Source of the DNA: Macrostomum lignano
Lineage: Eukaryota
NCBI GenBank assembly: GCA_002269645.1
Contig: NIVC01000024.1
Location: 744,001 to 808,000, forward strand
DNA: 64,000 bases
Direction: 5' to 3'
Shown one piece after another: positions 52,595 through 57,590 of the stretch. Each line of letters opens with the position of its first letter. The first letter of the stretch is position 1. Under the pieces are notes generated by a model. The model saw nothing but the letters and a program-made list of their open reading frames with translations. It was not told where the DNA came from and made no database searches. The translations under genes and the position numbers were made by a program.

Positions 52595-55500
52595 TCACTC
52601 CCGAAAGCCATACGGGCGGCTAGCAGCCCCATACACCCTCTTAGTCATTACGCGCTGGAAAGTCTTGTCCATCTCGAGGGTCCGGATTGTACAGCTAGCC
52701 TTATCGCGCCTGAACTGGGCCTGGGGCAGGCGTACAGTCCCGCCGTGACGCAGAATTTCCTGCAGCTCGTCCTCGCGCTCGGAAATCTCGGGGGTGACTC
52801 TGATGCCCTTGCACTTGAGCACCGAGTACAGCGACCCGTCGGGCTTCTCCACTAAGTACCGGTAGAGCTTGGGGCCTCCCGTGGTGAACTGTACCATGCG
52901 GCAGCCAGCAGGTACCTCGTCAGTCCACTGCCCCAAACTCGAACCGCCCGGAGGCTCGTACTCGCCCGGGGAGCAGCGGTATACAACCCTGGGAGAAGGA
53001 GGAGAATAAAGTGTTAAGGGGAGAAAGAGAGACAGAGACAGTGAAAAAATTACTTACGAATCGGTATCGGCGTAAATGACTCGGGTTCCTAGGCCCTCCA
53101 GAGCCTCGTAGAGTCGCAGCCGGGCGTGGGAGGTGGTGAAAACGCCAATAGGTACATTAGCGTACTTGAACGCCCGCTCGCCAGCACCGCCAAATCGGGG
53201 CTTGTACTCGAGCATCATGAAGCTCTCCCCAATTGGCTCGCACGACTTGACCTTGATCGAGGGGTCGGTCAGGCGCTGCAGCCACGCCTCGTAGCTGTCC
53301 ACAATCTCTGTGGAGGTCAGGTCGTCGCGCTGGCAGAATTTGCCCCAGAGCCTGCAGGGAAAAATAAATTTTTTTTTGTAAGTAGAAAAACACGGCCCCC
53401 ACTGCAAGTAGAAAAAACTTACGAGTTTAGAAAAATCTTGGCCACAAAGCGCAAGCCAGGATTCTCCTCCACCTTTTCCAGCCGGACGCCTTCGCGCTCG
53501 AAAAAGCTGGCCATGTAGGCAGCCTTGGCGTCCTCAGCCATCCCCGGCGAACCGCTAGACTCGGCTTTGAGCTTCAAAAAAGTGTTTACATAATCTGCAA
53601 ACAGACCCGTGCGAGTCTCGGTCCAATAGGCCAGGGCATGAACTGACTGCAGCTTGTAACCCAACTGCAGGGCTTTGTGGAGCTCTGGGGTCGACCACGT
53701 GCCGCGGAGCATTCTCTCAGCGTCAGTGTGTGTACACTCGCTGCTGCACTGGGTCTCCATGCAGACGCGGCAGAGGCCGAAAACCAACTTCTTGTTAATC
53801 TTGGCGGGCAGTAGCGGGATGTGGAGATTGGTTGGCGGCAGAATTGACACCTCGGCGATGCCAAAATACCGGGCCAGCTGCAGCTCATCCAGTAGATGAG
53901 GCTCGGGGTGGTGTACCGGGTGCCCGACCGGGTACTTGTCAAACTTGTTGACAGTCGGGTAGAGCGACACCTAGGGGATAAGGATAAGATAAACTCAAAC
54001 GCATGTCAACTGTGTGTGTACAAGTGTACAAACTTACCACATCCCGATAGCGCAGCTCTACAGTCTCGGTGGCCTCGGCGTGCGGGACAAAAGCCTCGGT
54101 ACGGCCGCCAAACAGGGCTTCCTCCAGGCGAATAGGCTGCTGGACTGGCGCTCCCTCGTCCTGATAGTCGTGCTCCCACAGAACACGCACATTGTATGCA
54201 GTGGAGAGCAGCCGGGTGAAGCGCTCGGTCTCTTCATAAATTGCCCGCATTGGCTGGTTCTTGAGCGGGTGCAGCACGTCGCCGTTGGGGAAGCACTTGG
54301 GACAGCCATGGAAGAAACAGCCATGAAACTGCAGCACTGTCCTGGTCTCTGGGTCGAAGCCGTCGACCTTACGGCCCATGGCGAAAGCCTCGCCGCCAGA
54401 ATCGGCTGTCCTCAACCGGCCGCCAAACTCGGTTGCATTTAAATGTGCCAGCCAGCACCGCGCCTTGTGCGACTGTACATCCGATCGGCGGGAAATCACC
54501 CCAAGAGTGTTGGGCTCCATAAACTTGGTGGTGAATACCGACATGGCCAAGCCCGCAATGGTGTTGGATTGGACAAATGCGTCCAGTCCGCAAATGTCCT
54601 TAATCAGGCGGGCATATTTCAGGCAGCCTTCCCGCAAAATTAACGTGTCCTGCAGGCAATAGTCCAGGTACGCCTTATTAAAATTAAACACCTGTCCCTC
54701 CTGCTTGGCCAGCCAGTCGGCGATGGAGTCATGCTGCTTATTCTTCTTCCCGCCGTACATATCAATTGAGCAGTAGGGACCGACGTACCCCCAATTTTGA
54801 GGCTGATTGAACACGTGCGGGAAATCTCCTTTGGTCAGTTGGGTGCCCAAACCAAGCGCCTTTGGGAATTGCGCCAGACCAATAGGGATGAAATTGAGGC
54901 TGTCCTTGAAGGTGATCTTGTCGCACTTCATGTACATTAGGCGGCTGTTCTGGAAGATCACTTGCGGCTTCTTCTTGGCCAGTCCGTTGAGTAGGGCGCC
55001 GAGCAGGAGGAATGCGTCATACGCAGAGCCATTGTGCGCAATTGCAATTGCCCCCTGCTTGAACACACTAGTCAGCCAGCAGTAAAAGGCATCGATAGAG
55101 TGCGGCCCAACCGAAACAAACTCTCGCATCCCACAGGCACAGTCATTGTGCGAGACACAGCTCGTAAAATCCAGCGCCAGATTGCGTCCCGCAATGCAAT
55201 TGGCTGAGCTGTGTAGTCCCCCGCACGCGCTGCAGCGGGGCCTGGGGAAGAGTTTGGGACACGCCTCGCAGGAGGTGGCAGCCGTAACCAAGTGTACCCG
55301 GTGCTGCTTGTCAGAGTCCAAGTACGTCTCGAAATCATAGTAAACATACGGGGCGCTAGACTCTTTGGCTTTGGGCGGGGTGACAAAGCACTCGTGGGTG
55401 GCAGTTTCGTCGTACTGCTTGCAGACTGGGCACTTGGCATAACCACACTGATGCTCAGGGGGCTGGCCTACTTTTAGTTCTTCTAGATAGCCACACGTGC

Positions 55501-57590
55501 CGCAAACGTGGACCGAATCACAGCGCGATCTGCCCGCCTTATTCTTGCGCTTGTGATTTTCTAGGCACTGAGCATTATAGCAATTTAGCCCGCAATCATG
55601 GCATCTTACATATGCGCGGTTTGCCTTACAGTTGGAGCCCGGAGTCTTGCATGTACTGCAGGCATCAGCGCACTTGTGCTTCTCATAATTGCAGTCGTAG
55701 GCCATCTCGCACTTGGGGCAGTAGTGATCGGAGCCGAAAAACGCAGGCAGCTTGGTGACCACATTAAAGTGCTGCTCGACCAGGTGTAGGTGCAGAATCT
55801 CGGTGCCAGGCAGGTTGAAGATGCACCTGTTGGCCTCCTCTGCGCGGTACACGCGTACACCAAAATCGCGCCCCGGATGCAGCCGGTTCAGGGCACGGAT
55901 CGCTTCGGGCAGTGCATCCACGCCGAAAGGACCAGCCTGCGAGACGGTTTGAAGAGTCTGTGTGGAGGGTAAAATATTTCTTTTAGTGTTCCTTATCGTA
56001 AAATTTCTTATCAGAAAATTTTAGTATTCCATGATACTGTGTAAAAATCTTATCAGAAAATATATCTTTTAGTATTCCATGATACTGTGTAAAAATCTTA
56101 TCAGAAAATATTAGTATTCCATGATACTGCGTAAAAATTCTTATCAGAAAAATACTAGAAACTTACCGTGTAGAGGCCTGCCTCGATTTGTAGCTCAGCC
56201 ACCAGCTTAGTCTGCGTGGGCGAATTGGCCTTGATCGTGCGCCACACCTTCTCGGTGATGGACTTGGCCACGAATTGCAGGTAGGCGCAGGCCACGACCA
56301 GAGCGCGCAGCAGGCATCTCTTGTCCGAGTTGGTGATGCGGACATAGTGCTTTGAAAAAGCGTGCCTCTCTTCTAGATGCCTGTTCTCGAGAGCACATCC
56401 ACCTCGAGGTACCCAGGCTTTTAGCAGACGGATAGAAAAGTTGCTCGACAGTACGCTTGCGTCTGACTGCACAATCTTGTCAATGTGCTTAAACAACAAT
56501 TCAGCCGTCATGCGGGCTGCACGCACCGGGGGAGTGTGGGCCGCTTTGAGCATGTTGTCGCTCTCGAATTTCGCGGCCATAAAGTCATCACCAGCCAAAT
56601 CTTGCTTGAAAACTTCGAGCATGTCGGCAAACACCTCCCGCAAATCTTCGGTGTTGGTAATACGCACCACATACTCGACACCCTTTGCCCTAAACTTGGG
56701 CAGGTCGCGTTGATTATCCAGCCGGGCCGTAAAACCTGCATGGGGGAATGGGGGAGTGTGAGTCAGCCAGGGTCTGTGTGGGAAATGGGGGGCGGGATAA
56801 CTCACCCGGTCCGGTAACAGATTCCGGCTGTGTTGGCGGGACAAACGCGTCTGAAAAAACACAAGGAGATAAAAAACCAGAAGAATCTGTCATTTTCCTG
56901 GCCCCAGCGTGTTTCCCCGCCCTAGCCCCAGCAATTTCTTAACAGAGTTTACTCTGCTGTCCCCGCAGCAACTCTGCAATTTCTTATCTGCACCCCCGCT
57001 GCAGCCTGTCGCAGCAGTCTTTGTTGTTTACTCTGCAACTCTCTGTCGCAGCAATTTGCACCTAGCTGCAGCCTGTCTGGGTAGCGCCCTATCTGCAGCC
57101 CCAGTCTGTCTCAGCAACTCTCTGCCCCCACCCGGCTGAAACTTGTCTAGCCTGCCCCAACGATTCTGCAGCAATTTCTTATCAGCCGCAGCACCCTAGC
57201 AACTGTCTGTTTTTGCAGCAATTTCTTATCAGCACACCCCTCCCTGTCTAGACAACACCCCACCCCAGTCTTTGTTTACTCACCCCTGCAACTCTCTGTC
57301 GCAGCAATTTGCACCCCAGCTGCAGCCTGTCTGGACAACACCCCCTAGCAGCAATTTCTTATCAGCACACACCCGGCTGTAACTTGTCTAGCCCTCCCCT
57401 GCAACTCTCTGTTACAGACCCTGCCGCAGCACCCCACCCTAGCAACTCCAGTCTAGACCCCTGCAGCTGTCGCAGCAGTCTTTGTTGTTTACTCTGCGGT
57501 CCCACAGACCCTGCAGCTGCTGCTGCTGCTCAGCCCCTACCCCCACCCTAGCAACTACAGTCTAGACAGAAATTAATTAAAACTTACCAT
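52595..57590 (-). CDS. Protein-primed family B DNA polymerase (Polinton-type pPolB), spliced, ~1280 aa
   Basis: Exons 56850-56167, 55957-54038, 53970-53423, 53351-53058 and 52988-52595 sum to 3840 nt with no stop before TGA at 52595. A putative ATG-only first exon lies at 57590-57588 (less certain). Motifs: Exo I YYDFET, Exo II AHNGSAYD, Exo III YCLQDT, LFGGRTE, motif A YRDVVSLYP, motif B KIFLNSLWGKFCQR, motif C YADTDS. Confidence 0.92.
52989..53057 (-). other. Spliceosomal intron (69 bp, phase 2) at pPolB motif C
   Basis: GAT TC|gtaagt...ttctcccag|G GTT restores YADTDSVVY. Confidence 0.9.
53352..53422 (-). other. Spliceosomal intron (71 bp, phase 2) in pPolB motif B
   Basis: AAC TC|gtaagt...tttttccctgcag|G CTC TGG restores NSLWGKF. 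Confidence 0.92.
53971..54037 (-). other. Spliceosomal intron (67 bp, phase 0) in pPolB motif A
   Basis: GAT GTG|gtaagt...tatcccctag|GTG TCG CTC TAC CCG restores YRDVVSLYP. Confidence 0.92.
55958..56166 (-). other. Spliceosomal intron (209 bp, phase 0) in the pPolB N-terminal region, containing a ~3-copy internal repeat
   Basis: TAC ACG|gtaagt...ccctccacacag|ACT CTT joins EAGLYT to TLQTVSQAGPFGVDALPEAI in frame. Confidence 0.85.

Follow-up and report, generated by a model that had tools for sequence, protein, structure and literature searches.

A stretch of 64,000 nucleotides of the Macrostomum lignano genome (assembly GCA_002269645.1, contig NIVC01000024.1, positions 744,001 to 808,000), hereafter the window, holds an integrated element whose gene for a family-B DNA polymerase of the protein-primed kind (pPolB) is built like a host gene. 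The only other gene of the element, arranged divergently, encodes a PC4-like protein, and no further coding room is left. The element is bounded by terminal inverted repeats, the length of which lies inside the 100-1500 bp range of Polintons/Mavericks. Its features, in window coordinates, are as follows.

51193..51198, left copy of the target-site duplication, AACATA, 6 bp, identical beyond both element ends
51199..59954, whole element, 8756 bp, termini ACTACT...AGTAGT, with near-full-length copies on other contigs
51199..52491, plus strand, terminal inverted repeat at the left end, perfect over 921 bp and about 1.3 kb long once a single 60-bp indel is allowed for
52595..52988, minus strand, pPolB exon 7, running to the stop codon
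52989..53057, minus strand, intron 6, 69 bp, phase 2, within motif C
53058..53351, minus strand, pPolB exon 6, motif B to motif C
53352..53422, minus strand, intron 5, 71 bp, phase 2, splitting the Ser codon after the motif-B Asn
53423..53970, minus strand, pPolB exon 5, motif A to motif B
53971..54037, minus strand, intron 4, 67 bp, phase 0, within motif A
54038..55957, minus strand, pPolB exon 4, putative vOTU His, Cys-rich region, Exo I-III and endonuclease-like insert, ending at the motif-A Asp
55958..56166, minus strand, intron 3, 209 bp, phase 0, containing a 48-bp tandem repeat
56167..56735, minus strand, pPolB exon 3, terminal-protein domain and first half of the putative vOTU (N-x-D-x-x-C)
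56736..56805, minus strand, intron 2, 70 bp, phase 1
56806..56850, minus strand, pPolB exon 2
56851..57587, minus strand, intron 1, 737 bp, phase 1, longest stop-free frame within it 99 codons
57588..57648, minus strand, pPolB exon 1, ATG at 57648, basic and by eye like a nuclear localization signal
57649..57884, putative divergent promoter region, TATA-like boxes at 57713 and 57829
57885..58382, plus strand, PC4-like gene, 165 amino acids, divergent from pPolB
58424..58498, plus strand, GT-AG intron of 75 bp within the 3' untranslated region of the PC4-like gene
58602..59954, minus strand, right terminal inverted repeat, pairing with the left arm
59955..59960, right copy of the target-site duplication, AACATA, 6 bp

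The polymerase gene consists of seven stop-free exons and six introns (phases 1, 1, 0, 0, 2 and 2) and encodes 1276 amino acids. Introns 3 to 6 show a GTAAGT donor and a pyrimidine tract followed by an AG acceptor, with a GC content of 26-41% against 54-61% in the exons, and the 6.9-kb element core has five GTAAGT hexamers on its minus strand, every one of which serves as a donor in the gene model. An initial annotation, made from the sequence alone, had placed four introns (209, 67, 71 and 69 bp) in this gene, and they lie at just these coordinates, with low GC and the splice signals it had described; their removal restores motifs A, B and C, with stop-free exons and fitting phases (0, 0, 2, 2). 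The 1280-residue protein that it had derived was correct in this intron set and differs from ours at the N terminus because introns 1 and 2 were overlooked. It had also passed over where the element begins and ends and over its lack of integrase and capsid genes; that lack is the more striking anomaly.

Splicing was assessed in four of 24 listed sequencing runs, compared as contigs, which give neither strand nor expression level: X1, X4 and X5, from three studies and presumed to be RNA, and X16 as a control. Contigs of X1, X4 and X5 skip exactly 737, 70, 209 and 71 bases, corresponding to introns 1, 2, 3 and 5, the intron 1 joint (56850/57588) being seen in all three, and the 67 bases of intron 4 are skipped in two of the three (X1 and X4). 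The spliced joints of X1 and X5 are deep, and the control run shows no joint at introns 1-5. Three of the four junctions for which the initial annotation had proposed an RNA check were thus found (56167/55957, 54038/53970 and 53423/53351). The fourth, at intron 6 (53058/52988), is not among the joints listed for any run, reads being cut at 53016-53048; the match of one X1 contig starts at 53057, at contig letter 133. Intron 6 further rests on splice sites kept in all copies of the same family (family A) that cover it, on a length that varies by non-multiples of three and on a position common to a sister family. The 75-bp intron downstream of the PC4-like gene is joined in all three presumed RNA runs and not in X16. 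These findings show that the seven-exon polymerase gene and the divergent PC4-like gene give host-type spliced transcripts.

The polymerase carries the domains expected of its class. Exon 4, a 693-codon open frame, and exon 5 both match Pfam PF03175 above the cut-off (E values of 5.4e-14 and 1.2e-12, respectively), and the Exo I-III and Pol A-C motifs that define a protein-primed family-B polymerase are present, the vOTU, Exo and Pol labels being those we take to apply. A pattern search found a vOTU-type N-x-D-x-x-C with a His-Phe motif, the Cys being invariant in 16 aligned rows and the domain being split by intron 3. Exon 4 also contains an endonuclease-like insert (DG-x-D...FHGC), presumably akin to VSR nucleases, which occurs in aligned distant relatives as well. 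The structural model of exon 3 (predicted local distance difference test, pLDDT, 83) has a core of four strands and two helices, consistent with a terminal-protein domain, and resembles the little finger of PolIV (4ir1; Z 6.3, root-mean-square deviation 3.3, 89 aligned residues), with other Y-family little fingers at Z 5.8-6.3, which is moderate only. Folding exon 3 as a single sequence gave a pLDDT of only 43, a BFVD search one weak match, to an adintovirus protein, and 13 of 69 long relatives match this exon. A terminal-protein domain resembling the Y-family little finger is described for Polinton pPolBs in the accessible part of 10.1101/2024.03.18.585575. The nearest named proteins are Macrostomum lignano models called 'DNA-directed DNA polymerase' (83-98% and 48-74%). 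Judged by motifs and predicted fold, the product is a predicted terminal protein-exonuclease-polymerase protein with a candidate vOTU domain.

The 165-residue protein falls below the Pfam cut-off for PC4 (E 0.034, 14.1 bits against 25). It is 31% identical over 115 residues (E 1e-10) to the PC4 protein of a co-resident Maverick, which itself exceeds the cut-off, and matches PC4 in an atlas at 0.86-0.87, with low recognition; PDB 4usg is matched at E 0.35 only. We consider it a probable single-stranded-DNA-binding protein. PC4 genes occur elsewhere in this genome, beside the integrase in complete Mavericks and, on one contig (L087, G000:C1753), as several stand-alone PC4-like genes (37%) with no polymerase match within the 10 kb examined.

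We then asked which Maverick genes accompany the polymerase. Twelve queries for Maverick integrase, capsid, protease, ATPase and TBP-like proteins gave no match inside the elements across 34 stretches; the two matches obtained both lie in flanks, and the control loci were detected in five of five cases. The element is thus without genes for an integrase (rve), major and minor capsid proteins, a packaging ATPase and a cysteine protease.

A genome search with exon 4, in which the best 69 of 226 candidates were scored, returned at least 70 rows, 52 at 78-100% identity and 18, from the sister family, at 63-64%; these rows are not copy numbers since the assembly holds duplicated contigs. Copies are 92-100% identical. 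Among 20 family-A loci, every covered GT/AG site is kept, no intron is lost and no in-frame stop occurs, with intron lengths varying by non-multiples of three; 11 of the 20 carry frameshifts, and 7 of the 17 that cover all exons carry none. In the 17 loci that differ from the window copy, the ratio of nonsynonymous to synonymous polymorphism (pN/pS) is 0.05-0.14 (about 0.11), a pattern that demonstrates, at the sequence level, purifying selection on the polymerase. All 30 family-A ends examined start with ACTACT, and a perfect 6-bp duplication is present at eight of nine distinct sites with both ends (the exception is C1201). Flanks and duplications differ site by site, two contigs (C4072 and C2932) sharing their flanks. 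The element has therefore inserted recently, with fresh 6-bp duplications, at many sites, and its lineage is still spreading, probably with borrowed machinery.

These copies bear on the idea that the polymerase is a domesticated gene of the host, multiplied by segmental duplication. Its host-like gene structure, the purifying selection and the duplicated contigs of the assembly would fit such an origin; the site-specific flanks and duplications, the long inverted ends and the 92-100% identical, often frameshifted copies largely refute it, and we give it hardly any credence. Targeted insertion into Mavericks is not supported either: Maverick genes lie within 1.5 kb of only 2 of 20 distinct insertion sites, a figure without a genome-wide baseline. 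Separately, one family-A copy sits within a Maverick capsid gene region (L021/L028, G000:C4072) and a second one has a divergent Maverick-type integrase at a distance of about 800 bp (L041, G000:C1412).

The sister family has all six introns at the same positions, with unrelated intron sequences and with exons that are each 55-74% identical to those of family A. Its ends read ACTACG, with a 6-bp duplication at both of the two sites with true ends, and the reduced layout is common to both families. Together with the spliced joints, these shared positions support the proposal of the initial annotation that the element has long relied on host RNA polymerase II (Pol II) and the spliceosome. Two nested insertions were seen among these loci: a long interspersed nuclear element with reverse transcriptase and RNase H within the 5' portion of one sister-family copy (L061, 4387-7122) and a mariner with 69-bp ends in a derivative (L110, 3100-4305). 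Two non-coding sister-family derivatives (L109 and L112; G000:C1299 and C2205) are palindromic across the 6-7 kb fetched, with 99% identical arms, a hint of fold-back products of strand-displacement replication. A multipartite element with end-sharing partners was considered and rejected: the sequence first used as query turned out to be a 250-bp repeat unit internal to sister-family elements, not their end, and its supposed partner loci were four non-coding derivatives and one with the nested mariner. A corrected end search, scoring the best 40 of 207 candidates, gave no candidate partner segment, and the 10-base end pattern was not commoner than its control (1594 against 2078).

How such an element inserts was considered against the Mavericks of the same genome. 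Complete Mavericks with single-frame, intronless polymerases of 1100-1480 codons are present, and all four whose ends were examined have AGTAGT ends. Scoring the best 115 of 2317 candidates, we counted at least 116 Maverick-type integrase matches in the genome, many with open frames. We favor, with a probability of roughly 0.65, an old, reduced Polinton/Maverick lineage: a self-replicating nuclear element, integrase-less, expressed by Pol II and integrated in trans. Host Pol II would transcribe both genes from the shared divergent promoter, the polymerase would use protein priming at the ACT-repeat ends to replicate the element in excised, linear form, and the PC4-like protein would coat the displaced strand; jump-back at ends of three-base repeats is familiar from adenovirus. 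New copies would then be reinserted in trans by the rve integrase of a Maverick.

Several points weigh against this account. The RNA nature of X1, X4 and X5 is a guess, and their contigs also span introns and the promoter. The element ends, ACTACT or ACTACG, are the reverse complement of the Maverick AGTAGT, with only A-x-T-A-x-T-A in common, and a helper with matching ends was not found among the Mavericks sampled, the end searches having scored the best 40 of 265 and 40 of 207 candidates. The PC4-like gene occurs in some sister-family copies and is missing from seven loci (L051-L064), and is therefore not required. The data, assembled sequence and contigs, show no free linear DNA, protein or enzyme activity. 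A tblastn search with exon 5 found no match at E<0.01 in the polymerases of the sampled complete Mavericks; the distance is too great for the element to be a recent deletion product of those families.

The parent might instead be a complete, intron-rich Maverick with ACT ends that escaped sampling, whose own integrase, possibly intron-split as well, inserts a deletion derivative. Only the best candidates were scored in the end, polymerase and integrase searches, and a Maverick-type integrase only 28% identical was met by chance in one flank, so the list of families is incomplete. Set against this, the reduced layout is common to two families as far apart as family A and its sister, and paired ends delimit elements of 3-10 kb, the exceptions being a 16-kb tandem-looking pair and an 18-kb copy whose repeats are expanded and whose fetched part shows no integrase match. 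Moreover, a query with an intronless relative retrieved, among the best 40 of 350 candidates, the intron-bearing family alone. We regard such a parent as unlikely, at about one chance in five. A still slimmer chance attaches to insertion without any DDE integrase, by which the polymerase with its endonuclease-like insert, or host repair, would write copies into staggered nicks. The lack of an encoded integrase, the mismatch with the ends of sampled Mavericks and the DG-x-D...FHGC insert itself speak for it; the precise 6-bp duplications and intact ends at eight of nine sites are what an rve integrase produces, and the insert is shared with distant relatives.

We next considered where the introns fall. 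Introns 4-6 lie in about 23 motif codons of 1276 (P ~1e-4, for literal motifs and post hoc). When positions were ranked by conservation across the 69 long relatives, introns 4, 5 and 6 were in the top 3.4%, 0.7% and 15%, respectively (P ~0.05), and introns 1-3 were in weakly conserved sequence. For relatives known as public proteins called without regard to introns (P numbers), intron sites were inferred from protein ends. Two of them (P0039, 65%; P0040, 61%) start at motif A and end after the motif-B Asn-Ser, P0226 (71%) ends at DTDS and P0227 (39%) begins directly after motif B. Twelve of 170 non-Macrostomum relatives covering motif B end exactly one residue past the Asn, with Ser or Arg as end residue, matching a TC/GT or AG/GT reading; other end offsets, up to 120, are represented by at most two relatives each. 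The motif-B intron site thus appears to recur in other lineages. On a quick, short tree (170 rows, 221 columns, built without the Macrostomum models or any row beginning beyond query residue 45), the 13 marked rows require 8 changes against 12.7 when shuffled (none of 500 shuffles being as low), and 165 rows descend from their common ancestor. This pattern points to repeated gain of the motif-B intron or to one old gain with many losses, though unbroken rows may derive from spliced RNA. Two relatives (P0078 and P0204) read N-S-E and then diverge, which would fit a Ser codon split by a phase-1 intron, at one base's distance from the phase-2 site in that codon.

Of the proteins examined, 174 of 182 have an unbroken motif A and 131 of 134 an unbroken motif C, so the motif-A and motif-C introns look confined to the close clade. 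The same breaks at motifs A, B and C occur in relatives at 61-71% from JGI and Logan; one JGI metagenome locus, at 40%, has an unbroken motif A-C frame, and IMG/VR held no relative of exon 5.

The positions invite the view that selection has made the introns at motifs A, B and C into a switch, in that their regulated retention (for example by Piwi-interacting RNA or tissue) would give a truncated, inactive protein outside the germ line. Three of six introns in motif codons, two of them at highly conserved positions, and the recurrence of the motif-B site on scattered branches would suit it. Yet the conservation-based test reaches only P ~0.05, introns 1-3 avoid conserved sequence, keeping any upstream intron would cut the protein short just as well, X1 and X5 have deep spliced joints, and the motif-A and motif-C signatures are found in the closest clade only. 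We think a switch improbable, a judgment that stands apart from those on insertion and origin. In the nuclear, trans-integrated lineage that we prefer, the introns would be ordinary and constitutively spliced, gained, we propose, because transcription of the element always takes place in the nucleus, and the Ser codon of motif B would be a site of recurring gains.

Comparison with known systems relies on the accessible parts of the cited papers. As in animal Polintons/Mavericks of the Alpha adintovirus type (OTU plus PF03175; PMC8097293, PMC8502044, 10.1101/2023.08.22.554363), the pPolB has terminal-protein, vOTU-type, Exo and Pol motifs, and the element has long inverted ends of three-base repeats, a 6-bp duplication and a PC4-like gene like that of co-resident Mavericks; in contrast, it measures 8.8 kb rather than 13-25 kb and is without integrase, capsid, protease and ATPase. 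Intact vertebrate Mavericks are described as intronless, as the initial annotation had stated for pPolB genes, with 5'-(AG)3 or 5'-(AGT)2 ends and 6-bp duplications (PMC8097293), whereas the element has six spliceosomal introns and ACTACT in place of AGTAGT/AGAGAG. We therefore regard it as a derivative that would work as a Polinton replicon does, not as a strict member, since the integrase, the capsid, the end motif and the intronless structure are all wanting. Fungal linear pPolB plasmids and transpovirons (10.1101/2024.03.18.585575) are likewise capsid-less, inverted-repeat-ended replicons centered on a replication protein to which a terminal protein is fused, some being helper-dependent, but live in cytoplasm, mitochondria or giant-virus factories, while the present element resides in the nucleus, is spliced and has integrated with a target duplication of fixed length.

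The nearest published cases, as far as the accessible text goes, are dinoflagellate introners (PMC11957031) and the introns of Ginger1 (PMC2836005). The former also place spliceosomal introns inside Maverick-Polinton-like elements; they are young transposon insertions, mostly post-integration, in full-length proviruses, whereas the introns described here are old, fixed in position, unrelated in sequence between families and shown to be spliced. Ginger1 is likewise a mobile element with conserved GT-AG introns in its enzyme gene and rve-type integration chemistry, but it encodes an integrase and no polymerase and has TGT ends and 4-bp duplications. The accessible text of PMC8502044, PMC8363768, PMC6431247 and 10.64898/2026.10.13.758929 contains nothing on spliced pPolBs. 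A literature search outside Repbase, subscription papers and supplements found neither this element nor any intron-split Polinton polymerase described, and one on Macrostomum with Maverick/Polinton no relevant paper.

The suggestion that introns hide the gene from surveys of open reading frames holds in part. Exon 4 alone is long enough to be detected with PF03175, and automatic M. lignano gene models cross these junctions; an integrase-linked survey would drop the element, and an assumption of intron-free genes would fragment the gene. One survey retained only integrase-linked pPolBs (10.1101/2023.08.22.554363), so the element, lacking an integrase, would be dropped from it, and another states, in its accessible part, that endogenous viruses contain no introns (PMC10120064). 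Against that working rule stands transcript-level evidence of a Polinton-type polymerase that is a six-intron, host-style gene and still spreading. An active lineage with neither integrase nor capsid is excluded by design from surveys that require an integrase.

More tentatively, we raise the possibility of an undescribed class of nuclear, polymerase-only, self-synthesizing satellite replicons, with an integrase (perhaps also capsids) borrowed from Mavericks, an ACT end code of their own, host gene structure, a clade beyond this genome, repeated intron gain at one catalytic codon in animal-type pPolBs and possibly replication control at the level of splicing. RNA interference and sorted-cell transcriptomics exist for Macrostomum lignano, a laboratory flatworm, so that trans-mobilization, the protein priming of replication inside an animal nucleus and the recurrent gain of introns at a single catalytic codon can be tested directly.

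Other observations concern the host genome. A TBP-like gene (Pfam TBP, 1.7e-23) lies beside the Maverick polymerase at L068 (7268-7897, G000:C114), L073, L079, L082 and L086. More intronless Maverick families were met at L070-L071 and L076-L077 (G000:C2506 and C506) and at L074-L075 (G000:C2285), one of these extra families being AT-rich (GC at third codon positions ~0.25) and one carrying a dUTPase. In the window itself, positions 136-16037 and 27473-29316 hold host C-type lectin/PAN repeats and a bHLH-PAS gene, and tandem repeats make up 23% of the sequence.

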